Shown here: positions 32 to 52,158 of the stretch, in pieces | Layout of the letters: the number at the start of each line of letters is the position of its first letter | How positions within the stretch are numbered: the stretch's first letter is position 1 | DNA from: a virus | Lineage: Duplodnaviria; Caudoviricetes | Virus record (IMG/VR): IMGVR_UViG_3300042291_001547 | Location: 1 to 52,394 of that record | DNA: 52,394 nt | Direction: 5' to 3' (one strand) | The notes under the pieces: generated by a model | Told to the model about the DNA's origin: nothing | Database searches by the model: none | What the model saw: only the letters and a program-made list of their open reading frames with translations | Position numbers and translations under genes: made by a program

Positions 32-261
32 GCAAGTCCCAGGTTGAGGAGCAGGGCGGGTTGTATTTTAAGCAGAAGGGATTGCCCGGGGTGCCTGATC
101 GGTTGTTGCTGATGCCGGTGCCAGAGGAGCACCGGGAGCTGGTGTCGAGGTACGTGAGGTTCGAGGAGTTGAAGTCCAGTGTCGGCAAGTTGTCGCCGAT
201 TCAAGAGCGGGTCATTGGGTGGCTGAGGAAGCGGGGGTATGTCGTCGATGTTGTTGCGTGA
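1..261 (+). CDS. VRR-NUC domain nuclease (resolvase-like)
   Basis: GVPDRLLL...FEELKS..GKLSPIQ..VIGWLRKRGY.VDVV is the typical phage VRR-NUC PD-(D/E)xK pattern; overlaps an SNF2 helicase gene. Confidence 0.85.
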   Translation: MGRERSLENKRKSQVEEQGGLYFKQKGLPGVPDRLLLMPVPEEHRELVSRYVRFEELKSSVGKLSPIQERVIGWLRKRGYVVDVVA

Positions 262-1558
262 TTTTCAGATCGAAGCGATCAGGCGAGGGGCGCAGGGTAA
301 TTTGTACCTGGCGGCTAAGCCTGGGTCGGGTAAGACTGCGGTCGCCGTGCACCTGGCTACGGGTAAGACGTTGGTCGTCACGCCTAAGCGCGTGGTGCCA
401 CAGTTTGAGATTGAGGCGCGCAAGTGGGGGCTGAATTTGACGTTTGCGCATTGCATGGGCAAGGAGGATGCCCGTAAGGCTGCGCTGGAGGCTGATGCTG
501 ACGTGATCGTGGTGTCCCATGACCACTTCCCTTGGTTAGTGAAGAACGTTCCCCTAAAGGCCTGGCAATTCGATCTGGTGGTGTTCGACGAGGCCAGTCG
601 TCTTCGCAATGGCGGGCGACAGGGTGCGGTTGGCTGGAAAGTTATGAACGAGATCCGGCGTAAAACAAAGTCCAGGTTTTTGCTGATGAGCGGGTCCCCG
701 AGACCCGGCACAGCGCATGAGTTGTTTGCACCGGTGTTTTTGTTAGACGGTGGGGTTCGCCTGGGCAACACGCTGGGCGGGTTTCGCACGGCGTACCTTG
801 AGCCGGCGAAGGTGGATCGATACACCGGCCAGGTGTTCAGCTGGCGCCTTCGCGAGGGCAAGGAGGCAGAGCTGTATGAGCGGATACGTGATCTGTTTTA
901 CGCGGTGTCTCCCGATCTTGGGCTGACGTATACCGAGATCGACCGGTGGGTGACGTTGCCTGCGTCGGTGGCCAGCCAGTGCCAGAAGATGGCCAGGTTT
1001 ATGACTGCGGATTTTTTCGACGATGAGATTACCGCGGGCAGCCTGGGCGTTGTTGCCGGCAAGCTGGTCCAGATGTGTTCAGGCGAGGTGTTCAACGATG
1101 CCGGGGGTACCAGCGTTATCCACGATCAGAAGATCCAGGAGCTGCGAAGCATTATCGATGAGATGGACGGCGAGCCGTTGATGGTCGGGTATTGGTATAC
1201 CCATGAGCGGGAACGGCTGCTGCGAGAGTTTCCAGGCGCGGTTGATATCACTACCGACGAGGGGCTTGAGGCGGCGAAGGCGGGCAAGGTGTCTGTCGCG
1301 CTGATCCATCCCCAGTCCGCTGGCCACGGGATCGATGGACTGCAGCAGCACTTCAGCGCCCTGGCGTTTTACACGTGTCCGCACAGCTACGAGTATTACG
1401 ACCAGCTGATCAAGCGGATTGCGCGAAGCGGGCAGAGGGAGACGGTGAGGGTGTTCCGGATTGTGGCGAGTAACGGGATTGCGGACGTCCGTGTCCTTGA
1501 GGCGCTGGGGAGGAAGGAGCAAGAGCAGGAAGCGTTTTACGGTTTTCTTAACACCTGA
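248..1558 (+). CDS. SNF2-family (SF2) helicase
   Basis: Walker A PGSGKT, motif II VFDEAS, motif III MSGSP, C-terminal HPQSAGHGIDGLQ and QLIKRIARSGQ; ORF open from 239, ATG at 248 assumed. Confidence 0.9.
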   Translation: MLLRDFQIEAIRRGAQGNLYLAAKPGSGKTAVAVHLATGKTLVVTPKRVVPQFEIEARKWGLNLTFAHCMGKEDARKAALEADADVIVVSHDHFPWLVKNVPLKAWQFDLVVFDEASRLRNGGRQGAVGWKVMNEIRRKTKSRFLLMSGSPRPGTAHELFAPVFLLDGGVRLGNTLGGFRTAYLEPAKVDRYTGQVFSWRLREGKEAELYERIRDLFYAVSPDLGLTYTEIDRWVTLPASVASQCQKMARFMTADFFDDEITAGSLGVVAGKLVQMCSGEVFNDAGGTSVIHDQKIQELRSIIDEMDGEPLMVGYWYTHERERLLREFPGAVDITTDEGLEAAKAGKVSVALIHPQSAGHGIDGLQQHFSALAFYTCPHSYEYYDQLIKRIARSGQRETVRVFRIVASNGIADVRVLEALGRKEQEQEAFYGFLNT

Positions 1559-3584: not shown

Positions 3585-3769
3585 CGTGCTTCCCCTAACC
3601 GTCGGTAGTCAGTGTTTTCCTGCCAGGATGGAGTCCTGGATAGGGTTTGCCATTCGCCTGGACGGTGCGACAAACCTTTGTCGCGGAACTCCCACAGCGT
3701 CCAGGGCGTACTTGTGGTCATCGCGTCGGCCGCGTAAGCGGCCATCAATTCTGCGTGTGCGTGTTTCAT
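3581..3769 (-). CDS. Hypothetical phage protein
   Basis: 62-aa ORF with GGAGG RBS, translationally coupled to the next gene. Confidence 0.7.
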   Translation of the reverse strand: MKHAHAELMAAYAADAMTTSTPWTLWEFRDKGLSHRPGEWQTLSRTPSWQENTDYRRLGEAR

Positions 3770-3797
3770 GTTTGTGTCCTCCTGGGACTGGTGGTGG

Positions 3798-4046
3798 TTA
3801 AGCTAAAACTTGTACTTTGCCCAGCAGCTTGACTGCGCCCACTTCGCGCAAAGCGACACCGCCCACGTTGTACTGCTGCCGCTTTGCCCCGGTGCGGCTG
3901 CCATACCCGGTAGCGCCGTTGCCGCCGATGTCGATGACCTTAACCACACGCAGCCGCTTCGGGCTGATCGCCTCGGCCTGAGCCGTCACGACTTCTGAGC
4001 GCCAGCCTGCTGGCGTGTATACTGCAGTGTTGTATCTGATTTGCAT
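3798..4046 (-). CDS. Hypothetical early protein (82 aa)
   Basis: ATG 4046 with GGAGG RBS; the longer ORF call to 4388 would run through the ribozyme and promoter. Confidence 0.7.
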   Translation of the reverse strand: MQIRYNTAVYTPAGWRSEVVTAQAEAISPKRLRVVKVIDIGGNGATGYGSRTGAKRQQYNVGGVALREVGAVKLLGKVQVLA

Positions 4047-4062
4047 TTTGTGTCCTCCTGGG

Positions 4063-4117
4063 ACTTGTTTCGGCCTGCTGAGCCTCGTCAGTAGCGCAGC
4101 GTCAGCGCTATACAAGT
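4063..4117 (-). ncRNA. Hammerhead ribozyme, type III topology
   Basis: Minus strand reads ACUUG-UA/-UAGCGC(UGACGCU)GCGCUA-CUGACGA-GGCU(CAGCA)GGCC-GAAA-CAAGU: full core and three stems; GUA cleavage predicted between 4111 and 4110. Confidence 0.92.
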
Positions 4118-4200
4118 TGCCGGTTTGTCCTGAGAGGCATCCGCCCCGGCTCCTGGTGTTTGGTCTGCGCCAGTCCGCAGTTGTTCGGTGTTGCAAGGCC

Positions 4201-4229
4201 ATTACATAGTACTTAACAGTAACTGTCAA
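4201..4229 (-). promoter_or_regulatory. Early sigma70-like promoter overlapping near-palindromic operator TTAACAGTAACTGTCAA
   Basis: Minus strand TTGACA-17 nt-TGTAAT with AT-rich upstream sequence; 16/17 identity to 3169-3185. Confidence 0.7.
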
Positions 4230-4249
4230 GCAATGTTTATTGATAATAA

Positions 4250-4279
4250 TTTCTATCGATAAAGCAAAAACGATAGAAA
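4250..4279. promoter_or_regulatory. Inverted repeat CTATC-N14-GATAG upstream of the virion operon
   Basis: TTTCTATCG...CGATAGAAA; same core and spacing at 10156-10182. Confidence 0.5.
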
Positions 4280-4381
4280 AAAGCGAATTTAAAAACTGTT
4301 TTACTTCGCGCAAGGCTTGCATTTGCCCATTGACTCGGAGAAACTCCGATTTTGGGAGACCCCTTGTTGAGGACACACAAA

Positions 4382-4603
4382 ATGGCACAAAGAATTGAGA
4401 TCGAGATCGCTGACGACGGCGCTACATCCGTCACTGTGATGATGGACGGCGGAGATCCGCAGATGATGGAGTTCGCCAGCACCGACGAAGCGCTTGACGC
4501 GCTTGGTCAGTTGCTCGCCGGTGAAGAGCCAGGCGAAGACGAGATGTGGAACGAAGAAGCCGCGGCGCGTGAAGCCCAACCAATGATGGAGGAGATGATG
4601 TGA
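4382..4603 (+). CDS. Hypothetical acidic protein
   Basis: GAGG RBS, ATG 4382, first gene of the rightward operon. Confidence 0.7.
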   Translation: MAQRIEIEIADDGATSVTVMMDGGDPQMMEFASTDEALDALGQLLAGEEPGEDEMWNEEAAAREAQPMMEEMM

Positions 4604-4803
4604 TGAAGCAGAAAGACGTTTTCCGTATGGGCAGTGGTGGTCCTACTGGCAGCAACCAGACTCAAGGCAAGGGCGAGATCCCAGGCAAGGTCAGCGTGCC
4701 GATGCCAGGCACTAACGCAACGCAACCTGCGTACAAAAAAATTGGCAACACCGTTAAGTCCGTTCCTGGGTTCAGCGGTGGCGTGATTCCTGGCAAGGTG
4801 TAA
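4600..4803 (+). CDS. Hypothetical Gly/Pro-rich protein
   Basis: Coupled ORF with GGAG RBS. Confidence 0.65.
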   Translation: MMKQKDVFRMGSGGPTGSNQTQGKGEIPGKVSVPMPGTNATQPAYKKIGNTVKSVPGFSGGVIPGKV

Positions 4804-4806
4804 CGC

Positions 4807-5292
4807 ATGGCCGGTCTGATACGTGACGCAGATCGCCGGCAGCACAACCGCAGCGCCGAAGTCGATGACGACGGCGCTCCGCTGCTCGCGACGATAAATG
4901 CTTTTGACGAGCCGATGACGCCCACGCGCGCAGACGGCCGAGGTCATGCAGGCCTGGTATCGGCTAAGCGTCCTGGCACGATCAACCTGAAGTCAGTCGC
5001 CCAGGCGTGTATCGACGCAGGGCTTGACCCGGCGCTGGAGATCGCCCGGGTGCTGTCGACGAAGGTGCCTGTGCTGGACAACAACGGCAACCCGAAGAAA
5101 GACAAAGACGGTCAGCCGATGATGGTCGACCTGATCGACCCGGACACAAAGCTTCGCACGCTGACGCAGCTGCTGGAGTACAACCAGCCTAAGCTTAAGG
5201 CGGTCGAGATGAAGATCTCAGGCACGCTGGATCTGACCAGCGAAGAGCTTGACCAGCGCCTGACAGCGATGCTGTCAAGGGCTAGAAAGTGA
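4807..5292 (+). CDS. Putative terminase small subunit
   Basis: Directly upstream of and overlapping TerL; LLEYNQPKLKAVE and DLTSEELDQRL resemble TerS C-termini. Confidence 0.55.
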   Translation: MAGLIRDADRRQHNRSAEVDDDGAPLLATINAFDEPMTPTRADGRGHAGLVSAKRPGTINLKSVAQACIDAGLDPALEIARVLSTKVPVLDNNGNPKKDKDGQPMMVDLIDPDTKLRTLTQLLEYNQPKLKAVEMKISGTLDLTSEELDQRLTAMLSRARK

Positions 5293-6749
5293 ATGCCGTT
5301 CTGCAGGACATAGACATCACGCTGCTCAGTATCGATGAGCGCCGTGAGGTCTATGACCTGTTGAAGGAAAAGGATCTGCGCGAGAGGCGCAATCGCCTGG
5401 CCAGTTACAAGCCCTACGGCAAACAGCTGGAGTTCCACAACGCCGGGGCGGCGTACCGAGAGCGGCTGTTCATGGCCGCGAACCAGTCGGGCAAGACGTA
5501 CAGCGGCGCCTTCGAGGTTGCCATGCACGCAACCGGTCGTTACCCGGACTGGTGGGCAGGTCTTCGATTTCCCCGGGCTACTCGCTGGATCGTTGGATCC
5601 GAATCTGCAGAACTCACACGTAAAGGCCAGCAGCGCCTGCTGCTCGGACCACCAGAGCTGCGCGAAGAGTGGGGAACCGGGGCAATACCGTACGCGTGCC
5701 TGGTAGACACTAGCACCCGGCAAGGCGTCGCTGACGCAGTGGCCAGCTGTGTCGTCAAGCATGTGTCTGGTGAGAACTCAGTGATCCAGTTCAACAGCTA
5801 CGATCAGGGGCGCAGCAAGTGGCAGGCCGATACAGTTGACGGCGTGTGGATGGACGAAGAGCCACCGCAAACCATCTACTCCGAAGCACTGACGCGCACC
5901 AACGCCACCGGCGGGGTCGCGTTTGTAACGTTCACTCCGCTCATGGGTATGTCGGACGTCGTGCGTCGGTTCCTGCTCGACAAGCCGGACGGCACGACAG
6001 TTACCAACATGACCGTGCACGACGTCGAGCACTACAGCGTCGAAGAGCGTGAGCGGATCATCGCCAGCTACCCGGAGCATGAGCGCGACGCACGTACCAA
6101 GGGCATACCATCGATGGGTTCTGGCCGGGTGTTCCCCCTGGCGGAAGAGGCCGTCGCGATATCAGCTTTTTCCATACCTGATCACTGGCCGCGTATCGTC
6201 GGTATCGACTTCGGTATCGACCACCCAACGGCAGCAGTGTGGATGGCCTGGGATCGTGACGCTGACATCCTGTACGTCACCGACTGTTACCGGGTCAAGG
6301 ACACCGGCATTGTCACTCATGCTGCGTCGATACGCTCTCGAGGCGACTGGGTACCGGTAGCCTGGCCGCATGACGGCTTGCAGCGTGACAAAGGATCAGG
6401 CCAACAGCTGGCCGCACAGTACAAGACGCAAGGCCTGGCCATGCTGAAAGACCGTGCCACTTTCGAGGATGGCAGCAATGGCCTGGAAGCGGGCGTTGCG
6501 CAGATGCTGGAGAGAATGCAGACCCGGCGCCTGCGCGTGTTCAGTCACCTGAGCGAGTGGTTCGAGGAGTTCCGCCTGTACCACCGCAAGGACGGTTTGA
6601 TTGTCGCTAAGATCGACGACCTGCTTGCCGCAACCCGCTATGCTATGATGATGCGCAGGCACGCTAAAACCCAATCAGAAGCATCGTCCCGAGGGTTCTC
6701 CGCTCCGGTAATACCCTTCGACGTTTTCGACCCAGTGACAGGATATTGA
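5289..6749 (+). CDS. terL: Terminase large subunit (P22 gp2-like)
   Basis: ERLFMAANQSGKT (Walker A), GRYPDWW.G.RF, WMDEEP (Walker B), TFTPLMG, GIDFGIDHP nuclease, DDLLAATRYA. Confidence 0.95.
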   Translation: MNAVLQDIDITLLSIDERREVYDLLKEKDLRERRNRLASYKPYGKQLEFHNAGAAYRERLFMAANQSGKTYSGAFEVAMHATGRYPDWWAGLRFPRATRWIVGSESAELTRKGQQRLLLGPPELREEWGTGAIPYACLVDTSTRQGVADAVASCVVKHVSGENSVIQFNSYDQGRSKWQADTVDGVWMDEEPPQTIYSEALTRTNATGGVAFVTFTPLMGMSDVVRRFLLDKPDGTTVTNMTVHDVEHYSVEERERIIASYPEHERDARTKGIPSMGSGRVFPLAEEAVAISAFSIPDHWPRIVGIDFGIDHPTAAVWMAWDRDADILYVTDCYRVKDTGIVTHAASIRSRGDWVPVAWPHDGLQRDKGSGQQLAAQYKTQGLAMLKDRATFEDGSNGLEAGVAQMLERMQTRRLRVFSHLSEWFEEFRLYHRKDGLIVAKIDDLLAATRYAMMMRRHAKTQSEASSRGFSAPVIPFDVFDPVTGY

Positions 6750-6753
6750 TGAC

Positions 6754-8961
6754 ATGCAGACACCCGAAGAGATGGAGCAGGACGGCACAGACGAGCGCAT
6801 CAACCGCTTGCAGTCCTTTGGTCAAGCCCTCGGTCGGCAGAGAGATAACTGGATACGCGCCCGGTACGCACTGGGCGTCGACAAGCGCTGGGTCGAAGAC
6901 GAAGACCAGTACAACAGCAAAGACAACGTAAACCGCGCAGCGTCACAGATGATGACCAGCGTGGAGCAGGGCTACCCGGTCACCACCAATCACGCCAAAG
7001 CGCATCGCTCTACCGTGTATATCGGGTTGACCCGGCAGAAGACCAATGCCGCTGAGGCGCGCATAGCAGACATATTGATCCCCACTGATGACCGTAACTG
7101 GGGCATCAAGCCCACACCAGATCCGACAATCAGTGAGCTGATCCGCGACAAGCAGATAGCGGTAGACCCATCAACCGGGCAGCCGGTCACTGACCAGGAA
7201 GGCAACCCGGTGCCAATGAAGATGGTCGCCCGGGCAATCCTGCGTGACGCGTCAGACAAAGCAAAGGCCATGCAGCTGGAGATCGAAGACCAGCTGGTCG
7301 AGTGCGACTACCTCGGTGAGCTACGCAAAGTTATCCATGACTCAGCCAAGCTGGGCACCGGCGTGATCAAAGGGCCGGTTGTGATGAACCGCATTCGCAA
7401 GGCCTGGAAAGAGATCGTTGACCCGGCTACCGGGGAAAGCGTCCAGGCGATGGTCATCGTTGAGGAAGAGGGTCCAGCCAGCGTGCAGATAGACCCGCGC
7501 AACGTGTTCCCTGATCCGGGCTGTGGCACCAACGTGCAGAACGGCAGGGGCATATACGAGCGCGAAGAGATGACGTCGCGCCGGGTAAAGGAGCTGGCCA
7601 AGCAGCCAGGCTACATGCCCGAACAGTTGCGCAAGGTGCTGGAGGAAGGCCCTAAGCGCAGCCACGCGATGCAAGAGATCCGCGACGAAGAGCAGCGCGA
7701 CATTGCCGAAGACCTGTTTGAGCGCTGGGAGTACACCGGCGACGTAGACCACGACGACCTGGCCGCAGCGGGTATTCAGCTGCCCGAGAAGGACGTGCTC
7801 CGGACAATCAGCGCCACAGTGGTGATGATCAACAACACCGTCGTTAAGGCGTTCCTGAATCCGCTCGAAGACGGCTCACTGCCCTACGACTTCTTTGTGT
7901 GGGAAAAGTCTGGCAACAGTGTCTGGGGCTACGGCGTGCCGTACCTGATGCGTGCTCAGCAGAGAGTGCTCAACGCAGCCTGGCGGCAGATGATGGACAA
8001 CTCTGGCGTGACCAGTGGTCCTCAGATCGTCGTCAAGCCCAGCGTCATCCAGCCCGCTGACAAGCAGTGGCAGCTGTCCTCGCGCAAGATCTGGTACGCC
8101 ACAGACGACCTGGACGACGTGCGCAAAGCGTTTGCGTCGTTCGAGTTCAACAGCCACCAGGCTGAGCTGGCCAACATTATTGAGATGGCGATGGGGCTGG
8201 CGGACGCCGAGACTGGCGTGCCAACGCTGATGCAGGGCGAGAAAGGCACCGCTCCGGATACGGTCGGCGGCATGCAGATGCTGATGACCTCGGCCAACGT
8301 TGTACTTAAACGCCTGGTCAAGCAGTTCGACGACATGGTGACCAAACCGCACATCCGTCGGTACTACGACTGGAACATGCTGTACAACGAGGACAGCGCG
8401 ATCAAGGGCGACTTCTCAGTCGACGCCAGAGGCAGCTCAACGCTGGTCGTGCGCGACATCCAGAACCAGGCGTTCCTACAGCTGCTGGCTGCAGGGGCTA
8501 ACCCGGTGTACGGCAAGTACCTTGATCCTAAGAAACTGTTTGAGCGTGCGCTCCAGGCGCAGCACATTGACCCGGCAGAAGTGTTTAAGACTGACGAGCA
8601 GATCGAGGCGATTGAAGACGCTGAGCGTCAGGCGGCTGAGCAAGGGCAGAGCGAAGATCCACGTATTGCCGCGGCTAAGATCCGGGCGCAGACTGATGTC
8701 CAGCGCGTCCAGGCGCAGAACGAAGGCGACATGATGGAGCTGCAGACACGCCTGGATATTGCCCAGCAGCAGATAACTGCACGCCGGGAAGAGCGCGGGC
8801 AGATGATCGAGCTGGAGATGTTGAAATTGGCCAACGCGCAGAACATGTCGCTGGAACAGATCAAAGCCAAGCTTGGTGAGACCGCGATAAAAGAGCGTAG
8901 CAAACAAAGCTTGTTTGCTGCTGAGCGTAGACTGAAGATGCAGATGGGTAGCGGAATATGA
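6754..8961 (+). CDS. Portal protein
   Basis: 735 aa following TerL; LGTGVIKGP, WGYGVPYLM, ETGVP..MQGE, TVGGMQMLM; long helical C-terminus. Confidence 0.88.
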   Translation: MQTPEEMEQDGTDERINRLQSFGQALGRQRDNWIRARYALGVDKRWVEDEDQYNSKDNVNRAASQMMTSVEQGYPVTTNHAKAHRSTVYIGLTRQKTNAAEARIADILIPTDDRNWGIKPTPDPTISELIRDKQIAVDPSTGQPVTDQEGNPVPMKMVARAILRDASDKAKAMQLEIEDQLVECDYLGELRKVIHDSAKLGTGVIKGPVVMNRIRKAWKEIVDPATGESVQAMVIVEEEGPASVQIDPRNVFPDPGCGTNVQNGRGIYEREEMTSRRVKELAKQPGYMPEQLRKVLEEGPKRSHAMQEIRDEEQRDIAEDLFERWEYTGDVDHDDLAAAGIQLPEKDVLRTISATVVMINNTVVKAFLNPLEDGSLPYDFFVWEKSGNSVWGYGVPYLMRAQQRVLNAAWRQMMDNSGVTSGPQIVVKPSVIQPADKQWQLSSRKIWYATDDLDDVRKAFASFEFNSHQAELANIIEMAMGLADAETGVPTLMQGEKGTAPDTVGGMQMLMTSANVVLKRLVKQFDDMVTKPHIRRYYDWNMLYNEDSAIKGDFSVDARGSSTLVVRDIQNQAFLQLLAAGANPVYGKYLDPKKLFERALQAQHIDPAEVFKTDEQIEAIEDAERQAAEQGQSEDPRIAAAKIRAQTDVQRVQAQNEGDMMELQTRLDIAQQQITARREERGQMIELEMLKLANAQNMSLEQIKAKLGETAIKERSKQSLFAAERRLKMQMGSGI

Positions 8962-26444: not shown

Positions 26445-27325
26445 GAGGATTGATTGCAGCCGCGCTTGGTGGAGTATCCAGAGGCGTCGGTCAAGTAGCC
26501 GAGAAACAGATTGAAGTTAACTCTCGAAAGGCTTTGATGGAAGCCGAAGAAGAGATGAACGCGCGCCTGGCCGAGGCTGCCGAAGGTCGCGCGATTGCCG
26601 CTGAAGGCCGAGCTGAAACCCGCCTGCTTGCTGCTGAAGGCCGAGCTGATGCTCGCGCGATTGCCGCTGAAGGCCGTTTGGATCCTGTTGAGCGAGAACA
26701 ACTGAGTCTGCTTCAAGCGCAGGTCTCTGGGGTTAGACGTGACAGCGCTTGGACGGAGAAAGAGCAAGGCATTAGAACGCGGCTTGGCGATGCGGTTTTT
26801 GGTTCGGAAGATTATAATACCGCACAGCAAGAACTTGACGCCATGCTGACTACGGGCACCCGCGCGCAACGCGCGCAAGACAACGTTGCTGCGGGCGCCA
26901 GATATGTAGACCTGGCTGAGTTAAATTTTGATCAGGCTGAACAGCTCAGAAAAGACCTTCGCGATGGAAACATTTTTGAGCCAGATGACGTTGCCGACGC
27001 TAATGAACGGATAATTCAGCTTCAAAGAAACGCAGAACGGGCGATGATGGACGCGAACGACTTGCTGTCTGGTGGAGGCAGCGGCGCGCGGCAGACGCCG
27101 ACGCAACCGCGAGTGCCCCTGGGGGCGCAACCGCAAAGCGCTCCGCAACCGCAGAGCGCTCCGCAACCGCAGAGCGCTCCGGGGGTGTCGTCCAGAGGGA
27201 TTATCTCTACGCAACAACTGCTAGGGATTACCCCTTCGCAACCAAGAGACCTTACTTTGTTTTTCAGACCGGGGACTACTATTCCCGTACGGCCGAGAGG
27301 AGAAATGATTAGTGGAGTCTTTTAA
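26441..27325 (+). CDS. Putative internal virion protein
   Basis: MRGLIAAALGG N-terminus, AAEGR repeats, (PQSAPQ)x3. Confidence 0.6.
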   Translation: MRGLIAAALGGVSRGVGQVAEKQIEVNSRKALMEAEEEMNARLAEAAEGRAIAAEGRAETRLLAAEGRADARAIAAEGRLDPVEREQLSLLQAQVSGVRRDSAWTEKEQGIRTRLGDAVFGSEDYNTAQQELDAMLTTGTRAQRAQDNVAAGARYVDLAELNFDQAEQLRKDLRDGNIFEPDDVADANERIIQLQRNAERAMMDANDLLSGGGSGARQTPTQPRVPLGAQPQSAPQPQSAPQPQSAPGVSSRGIISTQQLLGITPSQPRDLTLFFRPGTTIPVRPRGEMISGVF

Positions 27326-30300
27326 TTACTTAGCCGCCCGCCAGGCGGGGTATTCTGAAGAAGAGATTGGTCGTTTTCTTGCAAACCAATATTCTTTTGA
27401 CTATGACGGCGCGGTAGCAGAGGGGTACAAGCCTCAAGAGATCGTAGACTTTTTGTCTATCCGAGAAACGAAACCTGTGGCTGCTCCTGAAGTAGAAGAG
27501 CGCACGGTAGGTAATGCTGTCCAGGATTTAGCCGCGTCGTTTGGCGTCGGCACCGGGCAGCTGGTTGGCCTGCTGGGTTCAGCTTACGGCTTGACCACCG
27601 GGGACATGGACAACAGAGCCACTCGATTTGGCGCCAACACTGCTGAGTTCTGGGAGGCGCGTAAAACGCCTATACTCAAAGCCGCTGAAGATTTGCGCCA
27701 GGCCAGGGTTGACGCTGCTGAAGGTGAGTTTGAAAAAGCCGGCGTCGCCATTTGGGAGACTATTAAAAACCCAATGCTGCTTGTCAGCGAAGTCACCAAA
27801 CAGGTGCCTAACTTAGCGGTGGGCGGCCTTGCTGGTTTAGGTGCTAAGACGGTTGGCAAAGTAGGCGCAGCAACTCTTGGCAAAGAACTTAGTGAGCAGG
27901 CGGTAACCAAAATTGGTGTAGGCGCCGCTACGGGCAGTGAGCTTGGTTTGTCTTCGGCTGATTTTGGTCAGTCCGCGTACGACCAGTTGATGGCAATACC
28001 TGACGAGGTGTGGGCTGCAAACCCTGACCTGCAGGAAAGAACCGGTGGAAACCCTGACTTGTTCTTTAGGGTCAAGCGGGAGATGGCCACTGAGCTTGCG
28101 CAGAACAGCGCGATCGCCGGCGGCATTGTAACGTTCGGCCTGAATAAGTTACCCGGCGCAAAGACCATTGAAAAAGTATTGGGTGGCGACGCGTTAACCG
28201 GCACAAGAACTCGACGTGCACTCACGGGTCTCGCAGGCGAAACGGTATCTGAGGGCGCTGAAGAAGTGGCCACACAGCTGTCCGCTAATATCGCTCAAGC
28301 CCAGATAGATCCCAACACTGATTTGACCGCCGGTCTTGGCCAGGCGGGTGGCCTTGGCGCGTTAGTCGGCGGCGCCTTTGGTGCTGGTGCTGGCGCTCTG
28401 TCCCCGCAGAGAGCAGAGGCTCTAGCCCCGTCAGGCTTAGAAAGCCTGTCCGTCGGGCAGACAGACACTATAAACGGCAACATTGTCTCTAGAACCCAAT
28501 CCGGTTTTGACATAACCACTCCGACCGGCATGCGCATTCAGACTGATCTTAGTGGCGCGAACACTATACTTAACCGCCCGGTCGAGGAGCAACGGCCGCG
28601 CGGACTCCTACGCGACGCAACCAACGCCGGTGAAGCGGTATCCGCTGCAGAAGATATTATTGGCAGCATCGACGCAGACATCGAAGCCTTGGAAAGAGAA
28701 GTAGACCTGGCGTCGACTGACGCAATCGTTGAGTCGATTACCCCTGCTCCGATTACCCCTGCTCCGATTACCCCTGCTCCGCAGGAGACCCTTCAGTCTG
28801 GTCGAGGCCTGCTCGCTCAAGAGATGACCGGTACCGCGTCTGTTACCTTGCCTCCGGTTGAACCTGCGCCTACGTTAACCCTGGAGGCATTGGCGTCGGC
28901 TGACATCTCCAGTATGCCCGCGCCTGAGCGACAAGAGTTTTTAGCGGATCTAAATTTTGCCCGTACGGCAGAGCTGCCCGCTCAGCGTCAGAGCGCGCTC
29001 ACCCGTGCAGCAGAGACCTACGGCAGAACAGTTGGTCCTATTCAGCAGCCCGTAGCTCGAGCAACGCCTGAAGAAGCCCTGCAGGCCACCAGGCAGCCTA
29101 CTGCTGAACGTCTGACCACCGCTGCGCCAGACATAGACGCGCTGTTAGGCGCCGACACCCGCGGCCTGGATCAGGAAGACCGTGCAGACTTTAACGCTCA
29201 GCTGGCCATGGCACGCACCGCAGAGCCTGGTCCAGTTCAGACCGCTGCACTTAACCGTGCCGCTGAGATTTACGGCCGAGCGATAGGACCTATCCAGCCG
29301 CGCACACAAGCGCTTGCTGCGGAAAGGGTGACCACTGCAGCGCCTGATTTAGACGCACTGTTGACCGCGGATACCCGCGCCCTGCCACAGGAAGATCGAG
29401 ACGACTTTAACGCTCAGCTGGCTATGGCGCGCACCACAGAGCCTGGCCCCGCGCAGACCGCTGCACTTAACCGTGCTGCCGAGATTTACGGCCGGACGAT
29501 AGGGCCTATTCAGCCGCGCACACAAGGCAGCGCTCGACCCGAAGCGCCAAGACCGACCCGGTTGTTAGGACGAGCCACTGAAACATACACCGCGCCTGAG
29601 CTGCAAAGCTTAGCGGACAACACCAAATTGCCGGAGATTACTCGCCGAGGCGCTCAGATTGAGCTGCGTGCGCGTTCTGATTTCGCGACGTCCTTTAATC
29701 CCACAATGGCGCCCATGCGCACGCAACCTTTAGAGGTGTCAACGAATGTCGAAATCACCAGAGCAGCCCCAGCGACGCTTCAGCAAGGAGGCGCTGCGTC
29801 ATTGCCTGACGCCGCTGTTAACGTACCGACTAGAGCAGATGAAAGACGTGCAGCCTTCCAGCCAATCCTCGACTCCGTCCTGCGCCCCGGCGACCCCAAA
29901 ATAACTCTGGGCGCTCCGACGCCTGAAGCAGAAGCCCAGATCCAGGAGATGAGCAGCATCCTTGGCAGCGCGTTTGGCCAGGATCTGCCCGTGGTGGCGT
30001 TCTCTGATCCTTCGCCAGAATCGCCAAACGGTTTTGCGCTTAAAGGCCAGGCGTTTGTTAACGTGTCCGGGTTGCAGATCTCTGCCCCGCGCACAACGCT
30101 GCATGAGTTTAAACACGTTGTCGAGCAGATTGCACTTGCTGAGCGCGCGGCGGGGCTTACCGACACCGCCGCCCAGGAGTTTACCGAGCAGATAGAAAGC
30201 ATTTTCGACGACATGAGCGAGGAGGGTAAACGCAGCTACGCTGAGAAGCTGTTGTTCACCGCAGAACTTGAAGGCCTTTCTGGCGCTGAGCGGGAGACCC

Positions 30301-33300
30301 GGCTTCAAGAGCTGTTGGCTGACCCACTGCTGCGCTCAGAGATGACCGCTGACTTCCTGGGCAACCGTGCGCAGGATAAAAAGTTTTGGACTGACCTGGC
30401 CGCGGCAGATCCGCAAGGGTTTACCGGGTTCGTTGAGCGCTGGCTGGCCGTTGTTAATAACCTGCTGGCGCAACTACGCGGCGCTAAGAACCAGGGGACT
30501 AAAGAGTCTGCCAGGGTCGACAAGTATATCAAAGACTTGAACAGAGCCAAGCTGACCGCGCAGAGCGCGCTGATTAATTACCGCAAGGCCACTGGCCAGG
30601 CGCCCGTTGCTACGCCTGCCGCAGCCGCAGCGCCTCAGTTCTCTATAAAAGAAGGCGCCTCGTTGGCGGACACTGCATCCTTAGCCGGTGCTAACCGAGT
30701 CTCATCGTCGCAGACCTGGCGAAAGGGGCGGGACTTGAAGGTCGCGCTCCAGCAGCGCGTGATTGACGCAGCTGCCGCGCGGGGCATAGACGTCTCCACC
30801 GATAGCCCCGAGACCCGTGAGTACCTGCGCGAAGTAGGTATGAAAGACGCACTGGCCGCGCTAAACCAAAACCCCAACGCCATTGGCTGGTACGACATTA
30901 AAACGCGCCAGGCCTTAGCCGTGATGTCTCTGGTTCACCCAGAGATCGCACGCGATGAGAACGCCCGGTTTGCGTTTACCTGGGCTTTGGCCGTTACTTC
31001 AAACGGCATGAAGGTAGAGCAGAATTTTGAGTTAGCTGAGAAGGCGTACGATCGGTACAAGCGCGACGGCGTAATGCCGTCAAACTTGGGGGCGGGTACC
31101 GCTGGAAAAGCGATTAACCAATCGCTCGCAATGTTCAACGAACTGCGCGACGCGTGGGGCATCGACAACCTACGCCAGTTCATGCAGACCAATTTTACGG
31201 TTAGCGAGATCACCGGCCTGAGCAAAGACCTGACCCCGGGCGGCGAGTTTGCAAACACCACGGTTAAAGGCGCTGCTATCCTTGGCCCTAAGATCGGCAA
31301 CGGGTTCTTCTCTAACCTGTACGGAGACTTCACCAGCCTGACCATGGATCGATGGCTTATCCGCACCTGGGGACGCTGGACGGGGACGCTTATCAAAGCG
31401 ATGCCTGAGCAGACCGCTCTGGCACGCACCCGGTTATCCAACAACGTGAAGGCTATAGTAGCGAACAAACAAGAGGCCGCTCGGTTAGAGGCGCTCATCG
31501 GCGCTGAGATCACCGCCGACATGGACGTTGATCAGTTGTCCGCGGTGGTACAAAAAGCGTCTATGGATCCTAAGATCCGAGCAAAGCTTAACGAGACTGA
31601 TCTAGGGCAGACCCTGCGACTGGCCGGCAATAGCCTGGCCAAGTATCTCGACGGGCAAAAAGAAGCGCCATCTGGGCCAGAAGAGCGTCAGTACATCCGT
31701 GCCGTGTTTAATGATATACTTGACGAGCTGAATCAGACAGACCAGTATAAAGACCTCATGATGGCAGATCTCCAGGCTGTCCTGTGGTATGCTGAAAAAC
31801 GGCTATACGAAACTGCTAAAGACGACCCAAATCAACTTGCCGCAGACGAAGGCGTCGAAGGTTATGACGACGAGTCTGCGCCAGACTACGCTAACGCCGC
31901 CGCGCGTATAGCTCGTCAGAAGGGCGTCACAGACAAGCGTATTAATGCGACATTAAAGAGAATAGAAAATGAACGATCAACAGCAGCACGATCTGAAGAT
32001 GGCGTCTCGCAAGACGCTGGAGACAGGCAGCCGGCAACAGGTAGAGGCTTTACTCGCCAAGAAAAACGCAAGTTCATTGGAGAGCGAGCCGTCCTCAGAG
32101 TCAGGGCCGATCGAATGGGCGATGCGCAATCACCCGGGTCTTACTCGTCAAAAGGCCAACCAGATGGCGGACGCGTTCGGGTTCTAAAATCTTTAGGTGT
32201 CTCGTACACCAACGAGTGGAAGTTAAACCGAGACGCCGCCACGGCGTTCAGGGCTAATAAGATGCCTGCTCCAGAGTTCCTGGAGTTGGCATCAACTGCA
32301 GAAAATGCTCAGAAATTTGCCGAAAGCATCTCAGAAAATAAAGCCACACATCCTTTTGGCGCAGCTGTTTACGTGTACTCTCCTGAAGAGTACCGAGACA
32401 TGCGCCTGTTCCTTACTGAAGACGGCAAGTCTGGCGTAGCAATCAAGCCTGACGGGGACATCGTTTCTGTGTTCAGTACCGGTGGCGCCGGACGAGCTGT
32501 AATGGAGCTGGCGGTGGCCGCGGGCGGAAGAAAGCTAGACGCCTTTGACACCATCCTCCCAAAGTTCTACGCACCGCATGGATTCCGAGCCGTTGCTCGA
32601 ACCCGGTGGAACGACGAGTTTGCACCAGAAGAGTGGAACAAAGACACGTTCGAAGAGTTTAACAACGGCGAACCCGACGTTGTATTCATGGTTTACGACC
32701 CCGCTAAGATGGACGCCGAGTACAGCGCTAAAGACGGCAAAGTCATGGCTGAGTACGACCGTGCGGTAAGTCTTCAGAACCGTGAGATGAAGCGGTTAAC
32801 GCCGCAGTTCAGCCGCAAGCAGGGCGACGTCCTGGCCAGAGATCCTCGTCTGGAGCAAGCCGCTCAGGGGATGAAGGAAGGTACGGTTACAAGCGCTGAG
32901 TACCGCGAGCTGGTAAATGCAATCAAGCCGGTTACCCCGTATACGGAAGCCCCAGATCCAGCCAAGCCCGAGGACATTCGACGCGCGCTGACGTCTGACA
33001 AACTTGATCGGATCGGCGTGCCCAGTAAAACGCTTAAGGCCGGAGACCCGGTCGGTCTGCGCCTGGATATCCCAGCCTACGCCAACCACGGCGTGTGGGT
33101 TGTCTCTGTTCACGATCAGATACCAGGCTTTGCTGCCGGCAAGTCGATCGGCTACGAGAGCGTGGCTTCGGTTACAAACCCCACCTTTGGCGTCGTTGAA
33201 AGCGCAGCGCTCAACATTGCCTCCGGGAAACCGAAAGCCACCATCGCGGTAATGAAGGGCGACTGGAAACCAATCACTCCTAAGCAAGCATCTGCTACCG

Positions 33301-36300
33301 CCAAGCTTGCTATGGATTCAAAGAGCTGGGCACAGGTGGGCATGGACCCTACCCGGCACGCGTACTTCTACGACCGCGCCACGCTCCAGCCAGTTGTGTC
33401 CGCTGACGAAGCAATCCAGGTGGGACCTCTCGTTCTTGCTAAGAACCCGGTGTACGGTAACAAAGAGGATTTTCATTTTAGCCGTAAGCAGGCCGATGAC
33501 ACCGACGAGCCGGTCAGGATTCGACTGGGTCGAACCGATAACACGGCTGCTAATAAGGCCTTGGATTCTCTCCAGGCTAAGCTTGCGGCCAACCCGCTAA
33601 ACGATAGAGAGCTTACGCGCAAAGGCGCAGCGGTTAACCTGTCCGTGGACAACGGGGCGCTACGCATATCCGATATTCGCAGCACATCACCCGGCCAAGG
33701 CGAGGCTTCAGAGCTGTTGGATATGGTGCTCGCCGAAGCAGACACCGCTGGCACAAAGGTTACGCTTTTCGCAGACAGCTACGTCGAAGACAGCGGGCTT
33801 AACACCGATGCCCTGGTCGATTGGTATTCTCGCCGTGGGTTTGAAGAGGTGCGACGAGACGAAGACGGCGTAGAAATGCGTCGGTACCCTGCTAATCTGC
33901 AGTTCAGCCGTAAGCAGGGCGGCGACGAGGTTGCAGACATCCGCGATGCCCGTGAAGAGCGGAACCTGCGAATGTTCTCTCAAGATTTACGGTCTCGAAT
34001 TTCAGATTCAGTTAAAACTCGCGCCGAGAATACCCGTAAAGTCGATGCTGAGGGGGGTTTCCTGGGCTTAGAAGTAGGAGACACTTTCTTGACCCAGGGG
34101 GCGGGAGGGCGCCGCTGGCGTAATAAGGTTATCGCTAAAAGTTTATCGCGTGTCGGTCCCTCTATGCGTAGGCCTACAGGTAACCTGAACCCTATATCTT
34201 CTGAATTTGAATATACTTTCGACAATACGGTTTACACCCCTGCCTTGTACGTAGAGACCATTGGTCCTGACGGAGACGTGTCGCAGACTACAAACCTGCT
34301 CTATCTCTTGGACCAGACCGGCTACACTAAAATGGGAGGGCCGAAGTTCAGCCGTAAGCAGACAGACACGCCCGACATCCGATTCAGCCTCAAGCAGCAG
34401 CCGTTTTACAGCAGCCTTAAAAGGGCTGTGGGTGATATGCCTGAGCGTATGCGCACGCAGCCTGCTAAACAGTGGGTGCAGTGGCTCACCTCGCCATCGA
34501 ATCAGAGCCGCTTCGGGTTTAAGAAAGACGAGGTCAGCTGGTCAGGCGTTGAGGATTACCTCAACCTACGCGGCAAGGATAAGGTCACTGCTGACGACAT
34601 CATCCAGTACCTGAACGAAAACAACGTGGTTGTACAGGACGTTGTGCTCGGTGGTACGCCGGTAGAAGAAAGCGCATACCCTGCCGGCACGTTCATGCTT
34701 CCGGAGTCTGGAGAGACTGGCGACATGGCGTATTGGCGCGAAGAGCTACAGCGCATTGCCGAGGAAGAAGAACTAGACGTTGATACTTTAATGGATGAGC
34801 TGGAGGATGTATCCGGTGAATCTATGCCTGTCGATGCTCCCGAAGACTCTGTTCAATACTCGCAGTACGTGGCAGGGCAGGGCGAAAATTACCGTGAAGT
34901 GCTGATCACTCTACCTGTCAAACAGGTTACAAAAACCTGGGTTGCTGACGACACTAAGAATGGTTGGCGGGTAAAAGACCAAGACGGATTGTATCTAGGC
35001 ACTATCCGTAAAGATAACGCCAAGACCGCGGAAGAAGCTATCGCCGAAGCCGCGCTTACGTTTCGAGGACGCAAACGTGCAGAGGAGGTGGACTATAAAT
35101 CTAGCCACTGGAGCGCGCCCAACGTTCTAGCCCATTTACGCGTGGATGACCGGTTTACATTAACGCCGTTGACGCCTGATGAAATAGCCAAGTTAGAGCT
35201 AATAGGCAAGGCTGAACCTAAGTTGAGCGCTGCGCGAAATAGATTAAGAGTTGCGCGGCGCGGTGCTGCTTTACGCCGCGACGTTCGTATCGATGCCCTT
35301 AAAGATGAGCTGCGGCCACTGGTGCGCGCGGGGCAGCTGCCCTTATCAGAGATGATTGCCAGACTGGATGAGGTGTCTAGCGAAGAAGATCCTTTAGTTA
35401 AAAAAGCAGCTGAAGAATTTCGCCAGTTGCAGGACTCTCTTTCAATTCCAAATACCCCTGTTCAAAATCGACAGAGCGTATTGTTCGTCAACGAAGTCCA
35501 GTCCGACTGGGGACAAGATGCTCGTAAAAAGGGTGTCCGGTCAGAGACTTTTGTAAAAGATGACAGATCAGTGTGGTCGGCTTTTGACGAATATACCGAC
35601 ACTCTTTACAGCGGCCGTTTTGACCGGGCGCTGGACTACTTAAGAATCAGATCTATAAATCCTGTGAGTTTTTTAAGGAATTCGTCTACTGATGAAATAA
35701 AAACGTTCTTCAACAAGTACGAACCTGAAAACGCAGCCGAGATAATTCCTTTGGCGGAGACTTATAAAAACGTAAGCGCGTTGCGTGAATCCCAGGCGGT
35801 GTCTTCTAAAGGCGTGTCCCCTGCACCGTTCATAGGCGACACCGAATCCTGGGCTACCTTGGCTATCAAGCGCGCGGTAATCCTGGCGGTGGACGGTGGC
35901 TACGATAAGTTGGCTTTCGTCAACGGCGAGCAAGCTGCTGAGATGTTTGATCTAAGTAAGCGCGTGGGAGAGATCTTATACAATGAGGGAGACGGTCGAT
36001 ACTCGTTAGTAATATACAGCCCTGACAATGACTTAATTCATAAGCAGGATAACGCCTCCCCAGACGATGTCGCTAACCTAATTGGTAAAGACCTGGCTAA
36101 TAAAATAGTCAACGGTGAAGGGGTGTACAGTGATAGTTACGGCGCCACGGTTATCTCGGGACTCGACCTGAAAGTCGGCGGTGAAGGCATGGCCGGTTTC
36201 TACGACGGCATCGTGCCTAACATCCTGCGTAAACTTGCCAAGAAGTTCGGCGGCACGGTAGCTGTTGAGCCAGTCCAGGTCAGCCCGGGACGTAGCAAGA

Positions 36301-49576: not shown

Positions 49577-49753
49577 ATGGACCATCGTGTCAAGTATATG
49601 ATCGATCTGATCGAAGATTGTAAGCAAGCCATGGGTGCTCACACAAACGAGCAAGCTTTTGAGCACCCGCAAGACCGCGCCAGGATAATAGCTGCTCTGG
49701 TAGTCGCCGATAGTTTCAACGGCCTGCGCAAAGCCATGGTCGAGGGGCGGTGA
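49577..49753 (+). CDS. Hypothetical protein
   Basis: AAGGG RBS after the repeat motif; stop overlaps the primase start. Confidence 0.6.
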   Translation: MDHRVKYMIDLIEDCKQAMGAHTNEQAFEHPQDRARIIAALVVADSFNGLRKAMVEGR

Positions 49754-52158
49754 TTATGTATCTGCCCGAAGCACTGACCGTATTACATGAGTTCGAGCTG
49801 GTGCCTGTTGCGCCTGGTGGCAAGCGGCCAATAGGTGAGAACTGGGAGTCCGGCCTGCCTACCGCCACGCTGCAGGAGATCGCTCGGCGGCACCCAACGG
49901 CTAACGTTGGCGTGCTCGCCAGGCGAAGACCCGCCGTGGACATCGACATCACCGACGAAGCCTGCGCCGAGGCCGTGCAGATGGCCGCCGAGATGGAGCT
50001 GGGCATCGCCCCGGTGCGCGTCGGCCAGGCGCCTAAGCGTCTGCTGATGTACCGCACCGACAAACCTTTTCGCAAGATGAAGGTGTTCCTGACCGCGCCT
50101 GACGGCGCATCGAAGGACGCCGATGGCAAGGAATACGCCGTTGAGTTCCTGGGCGAGGGTCAGCAGTACGTCGTCGAGGGCGTGCACCCATCCGGCAAGG
50201 GCTACGCCTGGGACACCGAGTCCTGGTGGGACCAGCCTCTGTGCGTGGTGAACGAAGACAGCGCCCGGGACTTCCTCGACGTGCTGCCGATCTACCTGCC
50301 GCCCGGCTGGACGGTGCGCTCCAAGGTTGCCCCTGTCACGGGCGGCGACGAAGACGACGACCTGCTGCTGTTAGCCCAGCGTCCGCTCGATGACTGGGAC
50401 ATTAACCGCGTGATCGCTGACATACTGCCCTACCTTGACCCTGACTGCGGGTACGACGAGTGGCTGCGCATTGGCCAGGCGTTGCACCACCAGGGCGAGG
50501 GCGACGCGGAGTGGCTGCAGCTGTGGGACGACTGGTCCTCAGCTGGCGCGAGCTGGGCGGAGGGCGTCTGCAGCGGCAAGTGGGACAGCTTCGGTGGCTA
50601 CTCTCGCCGTCGCGTCACGCTGGCCACGCTTATCTTTGAGACCAAGGCTGCGCGCGACGCTGCTCGGGTGGCCGCGTCCGGGGCAACGGTCGCGACGCTG
50701 CGCGCCCGGGTGGCGTTGGCCACTGACCTGGCTGATCTGGAGGTGACCATCTCCCGCGACGCACGGGGCGTTAAGATGTTAGAGGTCGACCGCGAGGGCC
50801 TGGCCGTGGACATCCGTAACCGGGTGCGCGAGCTGGGCGGTAACATAGGGCTGGGTATCGTCCGAGGCTGGCTTCGGCCGGCGAGGGTGACCCGCGACAA
50901 CGACGCTGCTGCGTTAGACGCTCCGCTGTGGGCTAAGGAGTGGGTGTTCTGCGCCAACGGGGACAAGTTCTTCAGCCTGGTGAACAAGCAGCAGGTCACC
51001 GCGTTTGGCTTTCGAGCCATGCACAACCGGCTGATGCCCGTTGACCTTGACACCGGTGAGCGGGCGCGCGCTGATGTCGCCTGCCTGGAGCAGTGGTCTA
51101 TCCCTGTCGTTGACAACCTGGCCTACGTCCCATGGGCAGGCGCTGTGTTCGAGATGTCAGGCTGCCGCTGGGCTAACCTGTTCAGAGACGATCTGGTGCC
51201 CGAGGTGCCTATCGAGATGACCGAGGAGGACTGGGACGCGGTGCGCGTTGTCCAGGCTCACGCTGCGGTTATGTTCCCCGACGAGCGCGAGCGCGAGCTG
51301 CTGCTGTCCTGGTGCGCATGGCAGGTGCAGAACCCAGGGGTGAAGGTGCGATGGGCGCCTTACCTGTTCGGACTGGAGGGCGACGGTAAGTCGTTCTGGG
51401 GTTCACTGGTCGGCTCTGCCATGGGGTCTATCAACGTGCGATCGATAACCGCCAAAGTGCTGGAGAGTCCGTTCACCGGGTGGACGGTGGGCGCTGCGGT
51501 TATTATGTTGGAGGAGATGAAACAGCATGGCCATAACCGGTTCGATGTGATGAACGCACTCAAGCCGCTGATCACCAATGACGTGGTTGAAGTCCATCCC
51601 AAGGGTCGGGACCCGTACATGGCGCCGAACACGGCCAACTATTTGTTGCTGTCTAACTACATGGACGGGGCGCCGGTGACGGATTCAGACAGGCGGTACC
51701 TGTTCCTGCGTTCGGCAGTTGAGCTGGATGAGGTGCGTAAGATGGACGCCGACGGGTACTTCGGTCGGCTGTTTAACGTTGTGCATAACCGGGCTGGTGC
51801 GATTCGTGCCTGGCTCCTGGGATACGACTTACACCCGGAGTTTTCAGCCAATGGCAGGGCACCCGTGACTGACGTCAGGGGCGCCGTGATCGAGGCAGTG
51901 AAGACAGATTTGGAGTCTGTTCTGGAGGATGTACTTGAAGATGAGGGGTTCGGAGATACGCTTGCGATCGCGGATCTGGTTACCGCTTTGAAATTGGCGG
52001 GGGTTGTTGAGGTGTCGGATCGGGGGATTGCGTCGGCGCTGGGTAAGCTTGGTTACTCTTTTGTTGCGAGAGTTCAGGTGAACGGGAGACGGGCGAGAGT
52101 GTGGAGTCGCAAGATTAGGACGGCGGAAGAGGCAAAAACGTGGGCTGCCCACATCTAA
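49750..52158 (+). CDS. Primase-polymerase / PriCT-2 / SF3 helicase fusion
   Basis: GGKRP..W, AVDIDI, G.QYV..G.HP (prim-pol); YDEWLRIGQALH..W..WS (PriCT-2); G.EGDGKS Walker A, IMLEE, LSNY (helicase). Confidence 0.9.
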   Translation: MIMYLPEALTVLHEFELVPVAPGGKRPIGENWESGLPTATLQEIARRHPTANVGVLARRRPAVDIDITDEACAEAVQMAAEMELGIAPVRVGQAPKRLLMYRTDKPFRKMKVFLTAPDGASKDADGKEYAVEFLGEGQQYVVEGVHPSGKGYAWDTESWWDQPLCVVNEDSARDFLDVLPIYLPPGWTVRSKVAPVTGGDEDDDLLLLAQRPLDDWDINRVIADILPYLDPDCGYDEWLRIGQALHHQGEGDAEWLQLWDDWSSAGASWAEGVCSGKWDSFGGYSRRRVTLATLIFETKAARDAARVAASGATVATLRARVALATDLADLEVTISRDARGVKMLEVDREGLAVDIRNRVRELGGNIGLGIVRGWLRPARVTRDNDAAALDAPLWAKEWVFCANGDKFFSLVNKQQVTAFGFRAMHNRLMPVDLDTGERARADVACLEQWSIPVVDNLAYVPWAGAVFEMSGCRWANLFRDDLVPEVPIEMTEEDWDAVRVVQAHAAVMFPDERERELLLSWCAWQVQNPGVKVRWAPYLFGLEGDGKSFWGSLVGSAMGSINVRSITAKVLESPFTGWTVGAAVIMLEEMKQHGHNRFDVMNALKPLITNDVVEVHPKGRDPYMAPNTANYLLLSNYMDGAPVTDSDRRYLFLRSAVELDEVRKMDADGYFGRLFNVVHNRAGAIRAWLLGYDLHPEFSANGRAPVTDVRGAVIEAVKTDLESVLEDVLEDEGFGDTLAIADLVTALKLAGVVEVSDRGIASALGKLGYSFVARVQVNGRRARVWSRKIRTAEEAKTWAAHI

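Follow-up and report, generated by a model that had tools for sequence, protein, structure and literature searches.

A probably active type III hammerhead closing a conserved phage leader, and its likely part in standardising the 5′ end of an operon message

Introduction

What does a self-cleaving ribozyme do directly ahead of the first gene of a phage operon? In the account of Perreault et al. (2011; PMC3088659), prophages carry clusters of hammerheads of mixed types that flank single genes of varying identity and cleave both in vitro and in E. coli, and the role proposed for them is the processing of long transcripts into gene-length mRNAs. By the same account, an early transcript of a halovirus has a hammerhead 13 nt ahead of its first ORF and a 5′ end that was mapped within 3 nt of the cut. 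The RiboJ element joins a hammerhead to a hairpin and normalises the 5′ UTR behind it, with uncleaved mRNA modelled as decaying faster (PMC7536230). According to one review, the role of phage and bacterial hammerheads is still open (PMC6765202).

Here, we analysed such a locus in the genome of an uncultured tailed phage. An earlier note on this DNA had read a type III hammerhead whose stem III overlaps the ribosome-site hairpin of the first early gene, and had proposed that the ribozyme and the neighbouring Shine-Dalgarno hairpin compete for shared bases, so that self-cleavage would control translation. Is the ribozyme genuine, and is its cleavage better understood as a switch of translation or as processing of the message?

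Results

The window, i.e. the whole stretch of DNA that was analysed, is a linear IMG/VR virus record of 52,394 bases with a completeness estimate of 94%. Its main genes are the following.

239-1558, plus strand: helicase
4046 to about 1537, minus strand: short leftward operon of small genes
3798-4046, minus strand: P0001, first gene of this operon, 82 aa, AUG 4046-4044
4382 to 39053, plus strand: packaging and structural genes
5289-6749, plus strand: large terminase
6754-8961, plus strand: portal
27312-39053, plus strand: ORF of 3913 aa with a C-terminal LPD38 domain ('large polyvalent protein' type)
45321 to 39028, minus strand: DNA polymerase, exonuclease and Gp2.5-like single-strand binding protein
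49750-52158, plus strand: primase

Besides P0001, the leftward operon contains small ORFs, a DUF932 protein and an ORF that resembles PHROG 8, a transcription-regulator family (a weak match, E 4e-05). P0001 has homologues in 18 IMG/VR loci and no match in PHROG, Pfam or Atlas; we infer that it is an early gene. The hammerhead module lies inside the 335-nt gap between this operon and the divergent packaging genes, and since the genes upstream run the opposite way, the operon must start within 4047-4381. On the other side of the gap, a hairpin CGGAG-AAA-CUCCG followed by AUUUU (4334-4352, plus strand) precedes the opening ATG (4382) of the packaging and structural genes by about 30 nt. It has the look of a terminator ahead of the late genes and as such would suggest antitermination control of them.

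The module itself is laid out as follows.

4117-4063, minus strand: type III hammerhead (RF00008 match of 31.4 bits, family covariation)
4117-4112 with 4068-4063, minus strand: stem III, 6 bp
G4113-U4112-A4111, minus strand: cleavage triplet GUA (A17 = 4111)
4110-4105 with 4097-4092, minus strand: stem I, closed by a 7-nt loop
4091-4085, minus strand: core CUGACGA
4084-4081 with 4075-4072, minus strand: stem II, closed by a 5-nt loop
4071-4069, minus strand: core GAA

In conventional numbering, a type III hammerhead is defined by CUGANGA, GAAA, an A15.1-U16.1 pair and a cleavage-site nucleotide other than G. We found CUGACGA at 4091-4085, GAAA at 4071-4068, the pair A4068-U4112 and A4111 at the cleavage site, and the core positions are invariant across 23 aligned copies. 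Stems I and II are loop-closed and stem III is open, and the helices are backed by the covariation described below. Core and helices are complete, and the element lies on the coding strand, in the untranslated stretch ahead of the first gene of the leftward operon; the type read by the earlier note is borne out. The predicted cut falls between 4111 and 4110, and the new 5′ end would be U4110, which is where the GUA triplet puts it and where the earlier note had expected it.

The element belongs with RF00008 (clan CL00010), whose core, three-helix junction with an open stem III and GUH triplet it has. It departs from that family in general by its phage-specific stem I and stem II loops, which are common to the 28 copies found, and by its score of 31.4 bits against a cut-off of 48.5 bits. 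Fast cleavage by a hammerhead requires the loops of stems I and II to touch in a tertiary contact. These loops are alike across copies, with the limit that loop II belonged to the search pattern, and no Watson-Crick loop-loop covariation was seen.

How widely is this arrangement distributed? A synteny comparison of 15 loci, two of which duplicate other contigs, gave 13 distinct syntenic IMG/VR contigs, whose large terminases are about 78-87% identical at the protein level. In all 13, a hammerhead occupies the same place, divergent from P0002-orf4807-terminase-portal. Nine unique versions could be aligned from the TTGAC motif through the leader and the hammerhead to the ribosome site, and ten metagenome loci supplied further variants, while the first gene downstream of the module varies between contigs. 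Within this close set, stem III shows a compensatory shift from ACUUGU/ACAAGU to AUCGU/ACGAU, and stem I is altered in L057 and L087. In four more distant relatives whose contigs extend far enough (L097-L100; identity of orf4807 45-54%), no hammerhead turned up within 2.5 kb, so that the element is dispensable for this type of phage. By this sequence comparison, the type III module is restricted to one clade. Searching isolated phages with positions 3700-4700 gave only chance-level matches (E of 1 or more), and a scan of genome contigs for a host returned two loci (L079, L080), neither of which fits the hammerhead covariance model.

The leader that precedes the ribozyme

Upstream of the hammerhead, we found a promoter-like site and a leader with several candidate stems.

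4229-4201, minus strand: promoter-like site, with TTGACA at 4229-4224, a 17-nt spacer and TGTAAT at 4206-4201
4194-4119, minus strand: conserved untranslated leader, 87% mean column identity across 12 relatives
4180-4176 with 4169-4165, minus strand: leader hairpin P-a, with two compensatory pairs
4150-4146 with 4123-4119 (outer) and 4145-4143 with 4138-4136 (inner), minus strand: possible leader stem, invariant in the relatives

Transcription would start near 4194. The TTGAC motif is invariant in nine aligned relatives; a promoter scan left 4229-4201 unflagged, the second hexamer, a poor -10 element, having a G at position 2. An inverted repeat, TTCTATCG...CGATAGAA (4252-4279), lies a short way upstream of the -35 hexamer, with similar repeats in L029, L031 and L042 and a weak Rfam match to the pntA sRNA (28.4 bits); it may serve as a binding site for a regulator or as a terminator acting in both directions. 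A second leftward copy of the promoter is present at 3185-3157 (minus strand; TTGACA 3185-3180, TTTAAT 3162-3157), followed by a short leader without a hammerhead. A near-palindrome TTGACAG...CTGTCAA spans the -35 of this second copy and may be an operator common to both promoters.

The leader is more strongly conserved than the stems of the hammerhead that follows it, and this exceeds what insulation of the message alone would require. Could the main job of the ribozyme then be to release the leader as a functional RNA, either a small regulatory or a polymerase-bound one, with the cut also freeing the ribosome site? The near invariance of the leader beside variable hammerhead stems, the two compensatory pairs of its 5′ hairpin, the end of its possible 3′ stem only 1 nt ahead of stem III, and its presence with the hammerhead in 13 of 13 IMG/VR matches would all fit such a role. 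However, the 13 contigs are mutually related, syntenic phages, and the co-occurrence is not independent; the leader stems other than P-a show zero variation among the relatives, and hence no covariation signal; no Rfam family matched the leader at E up to 10; and the conservation could lie at the DNA level, as a binding site for a regulator. Pairing of the leader with the ribosome site across the hammerhead, a lead from RNAalifold, was rejected as a masking device for this family: in 12 of 12 relatives the duplex energies do not surpass those of dinucleotide shuffles (z between -1.63 and +0.41, with 24 or more of 300 shuffles doing equally well), and the place of the best duplex varies from one relative to the next. 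Taken together, we consider release of a functional leader RNA rather unlikely as the main role. The same degree of doubt attaches to the reading in which leader and hammerhead form one device, the ribozyme making the 3′ end of a conserved and folded RNA, about 84 nt long and acting in its own right, that is uncoupled from the ribosome site of the next gene; if true, it would give the first hammerhead of phage ribozyme clusters a concrete and testable job. The RNase III site of the lambda N leader offers a parallel, in that cutting there separates a conserved promoter-proximal leader from the first gene's ribosome site; that cut is made by a host enzyme, unlike one made by a ribozyme, and the resemblance is a lead only for the role of the leader.

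We also considered a mini-ORF of ten codons in the leader (4140-4108, minus strand, AUG 4140), which is unlikely to be coding, its frame being broken by 1-nt indels in L031, L035, L057 and L061. Its stop codon UAG occupies 4110-4108, the first three nucleotides past the predicted cut, and cleavage would remove it.

A hairpin around the Shine-Dalgarno sequence

The second structure of interest lies downstream of the ribozyme and recurs in the window.

4064-4052, minus strand: hairpin GUCC-CAGGA-GGAC (GUCC 4064-4061, CAGGA loop 4060-4056, GGAC 4055-4052)
3788-3776, minus strand: identical 13-nt hairpin before the second gene (AUG 3769), without a hammerhead
3133-3121, minus strand: identical 13-nt hairpin before gene 3117-2818, without a hammerhead, downstream of the second promoter copy
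2766-2754, minus strand: variant GACC-CAGGA-GGUC directly past a type II hammerhead (AUG 2750)
43438-43426, minus strand: variant GCCC/GGGC

At the first gene, the hairpin holds the Shine-Dalgarno sequence AGGAGG (4059-4054, minus strand), 7 nt ahead of AUG 4046, and has by itself a predicted folding energy of -4.7 kcal/mol. The sequence CCAGGAGG occurs five times in the window, always on the minus strand, against 1.55 expected, and this count was reached by none of 100 shuffles. Across nine unique contigs, the outer pairs are complementary in 26 of 27 hairpin-form sites with five different pair combinations. Eight of these 26 hairpins follow a type III hammerhead, nine a type II and nine none, as read from the rows; this reading corrected the automatic flags in two cases, one a false type III and the other a supposed 'none' that lies 15 nt past a type II. 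Judged by this comparison, the hairpin is a real and general design of ribosome sites in the phage group. The GGA in its loop recalls the sites of translational regulators of the CsrA/Rsm type. A terminator-like match on the plus strand at 4052-4064 was set aside; it is the reverse complement of this hairpin and at chance level.

Does the hairpin make a switch together with the ribozyme? The first part of that proposal is correct: the 3′ strand of stem III shares two bases, G4064 and U4063, with the 4-bp hairpin. Competition for these two bases, with cleavage refolding the ribosome site and thereby switching translation, would be in line with the recurrence of the overlap in L029, L042 and L035. 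It would also be in line with a type II copy in L022, one stem II strand of which is the complete 5′ arm of the hairpin, and with four other family members (L063, L064, L067 and L062), where the Shine-Dalgarno sequence lies inside stem III and its predicted accessibility rises on cleavage from 0.19 to 0.73, from 0.16 to 0.89, from 0.00 to 0.67 and from 0.00 to 0.36, respectively. In the window, however, the predicted unpaired fraction of the Shine-Dalgarno sequence is 0.66 in the uncut, hammerhead-folded RNA and 0.67 in the 3′ product, which is against the claim that cleavage frees the ribosome site. The competing folds, a 6-bp stem III without the hairpin (-17.1 kcal/mol) and a 4-bp stem III with it (-17.8 kcal/mol), are only 0.7 kcal/mol apart. 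In seven close relatives, the predicted change in accessibility is small and goes in both directions.

Nor does the geometry point to a coupling of cleavage and translation through the overlap, as this hairpin also precedes genes lacking a hammerhead and its spacing from the ribozyme is variable. Counting type III and type II copies together, the distance from the 3′ end of the hammerhead to the hairpin ranges from -4 to +15 nt: it is -4 in L022, where the stem II strand doubles as hairpin arm, -2 in the window, L029, L042 and L035, between 0 and +2 in L057, L022/L028 and L031, and up to +15 in L029. More generally, an ORF starts 11-25 nt past GAAAC in 30 of 33 distinct copies, the other three being truncated by contig ends, so that stem III is always beside, or within reach of, the initiating ribosome. 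We take the overlap of two nucleotides as a by-product of tight packing and not as a switch. According to the folding models, a coupling of cleavage to translation is not absurd for the family but is unsupported at this locus, where we regard it as quite unlikely.

One further observation concerns the type II copy mentioned above (L022 5932-5986, plus strand). The 3′ strand of its stem II is the entire 5′ arm of the next Shine-Dalgarno hairpin, and either helix there wholly precludes the other; no other natural case in the phage group speaks as strongly for cleavage-linked refolding.

Further hammerheads in the same operon

Is the ribozyme alone in its operon? We found one more on the same strand.

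2817-2767, minus strand: type II hammerhead (RF02276, 28.4 bits against a cut-off of 37 bits; parsed helices and covarying relatives)

It follows the stop codon at 2820-2818 and precedes the ribosome site from which the DUF932 gene (AUG 2750) would be read, with a predicted cut between 2796 and 2795. This copy and the type III one head the Rfam matches of the window, both on the strand of the operon. Relatives carry two to four hammerheads per operon (L022, L029, L066): L066 combines a single type III with three type II; in L029, a single type III is joined by two type II, of which one, at 37.7 bits, exceeds the RF02276 cut-off; and L022 has one type III and one type II Rfam match, with two more copies of the CUGAUGA type revealed by its ribosome-site rows. 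Among the type II copies, covariation is seen in both stem I and stem III. The operon thus shows the features of a phage hammerhead cluster, with at least two copies in one orientation that flank single genes or short blocks of variable identity. In several type III copies that lie between genes (L085 5542-5761, minus strand; also L064, L068, L072 and L076), a G+C-rich hairpin is found directly upstream, after the preceding stop codon, and would protect the 3′ end that cleavage leaves on the upstream fragment.

Selection on the RNA fold

Is the fold itself maintained by selection? At gathering thresholds, Rfam gave no match in the window. With permissive thresholds, the best of 4227 Rfam families over the whole window was RF00008 at 4118-4062, with 31.4 bits, below its cut-off, and an E-value of 7.2e-05 in 501 bases or 0.0076 over the window; the close relatives that were tested scored 31-38.6 bits. 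The bare core pattern is not significant (4 matches in the window, 2.05 expected), and minimum free energy folding of the bare element did not recover the hammerhead (z = -0.92), a calculation that is uninformative for a ribozyme held by tertiary contacts.

What decides the matter is comparison. The search pattern consisted of core, stem II and GAAAC only, and yielded 30 IMG/VR stretches; an earlier, different pattern had yielded 39, other hammerhead types among them. Stems I and III were absent from the pattern, and the parse of 25 copies is thus free of model-fitting bias. All 25 parsed copies form both stems and have GUA or GUC ahead of the cut; stem I has 6-7 bp and, as counted from the rows, 14 distinct sequences, and stem III has 3-10 bp. 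A covariance model built from 23 copies found 39 places at an E-value of 0.01 or less, 28 of them distinct. In the alignment of these 28 phage-contig copies, which is model-fitted and to that extent favours structure, 95.9% of cells are paired, compensatory double changes occur at 11 of 16 pairs, and the covariation score is 0.645 against 0.126 in shuffles. None of 500 shuffles reached this score, and sliding the partners gave at most 0.098. Compensatory changes in stems I and III around an intact core indicate selection on the RNA fold, beyond DNA identity. In the comparative sense, the type III hammerhead at 4117-4063 is genuine.

This result bears on two further explanations. The hammerheads and the repeated hairpins might be junctions of gene-cassette recombination, or passengers, with no regulatory role. 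Near-identical hairpins and similar type II hammerheads do flank genes that differ in order and identity between relatives, and in the clusters described by Perreault et al. (PMC3088659) the flanked genes are not constant either. We nevertheless consider such a role very unlikely, because the compensation seen in stems I and III, around a core that is intact, speaks for selection on an RNA fold, and the stem of the hairpin covaries too. Finally, a chance match or a decayed, inactive copy, as the Rfam score under the cut-off and the chance-level core pattern might suggest, is extremely improbable given a fit to the consensus at every core position, strong covariation in the family and a sole stem II change in the window copy that still gives a G-U pair.

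Discussion

In this phage, a type III hammerhead stands between a conserved leader and the ribosome site that serves the first gene of an operon. The explanation that we prefer, and hold to be reasonably likely from the sequence comparisons, is that a probably active type III hammerhead sits where the conserved leader, about 84 nt long, comes to its 3′ end, in an operon with at least two hammerheads, and that its cleavage standardises the 5′ end of the mRNA. The ribozyme would cut between A4111 and U4110 while the RNA is still being made. The leader would depart with its 5′ triphosphate and a 2′,3′-cyclic phosphate end; the position of the cut fits the suggestion of the earlier note that cleavage removes a triphosphorylated leader, on the condition that the ribozyme, as predicted, is active. 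The first nucleotide of the remaining mRNA would be base-paired and carry a 5′ hydroxyl; stem I, stem II and the Shine-Dalgarno hairpin would come next. All messages of the operon would in this way gain a standard structured 5′ end, regardless of the sequence upstream. In Gram-negative hosts, 5′-hydroxyl and paired 5′ ends slow decay, an effect that depends on the host. Like the engineered RiboJ, the standard end would insulate the message and probably stabilise it, and the first gene could be freely exchanged. The exchangeable genes, together with the capping hairpins before the intergenic copies, fit self-processing of the transcript into units with standard ends.

How does this arrangement compare with known systems? 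The prophage clusters, as Perreault et al. (2011) describe them, resemble it in having several hammerheads of mixed types in the same orientation within a phage operon of variable small genes. Unlike in that description, the first copy of the window follows a promoter-proximal conserved leader instead of lying between two genes, and a Shine-Dalgarno hairpin recurs after each cut in the operon. HHphage of the haloviruses HF1 and HF2, in the same description, comes from viruses of an archaeal host and its core is a variant that contains an insertion, whereas the window has a consensus core and bacterial-type signals. From its published outline, RiboJ offers the closest order of parts, with promoter, 5′ UTR, type III hammerhead, hairpin and ribosome site, and a cut that sheds variable or unwanted RNA from upstream. 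In the window, a promoter-like site, hammerhead, hairpin and ribosome site are found in this order with exchangeable flanks, which is an analogy and no homology, and an insulating effect would follow by that analogy. RiboJ is engineered and no homologue, and in that outline its hairpin of 23 nt precedes the ribosome site, whereas the 13-nt hairpin of the window contains the Shine-Dalgarno sequence.

In summary, the arrangement has been known since 2011, and the window adds members and detail, not a new kind of element. The phage group nevertheless provides a compact test case, in which a conserved module of promoter, leader, ribozyme and ribosome site stands before exchangeable genes. Natural variants with and without the overlap of stem III and hairpin are available, and sister genes carry the same ribosome-site hairpin without a ribozyme. 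Such natural variants are controls by which effects on processing, stability and translation can be separated.
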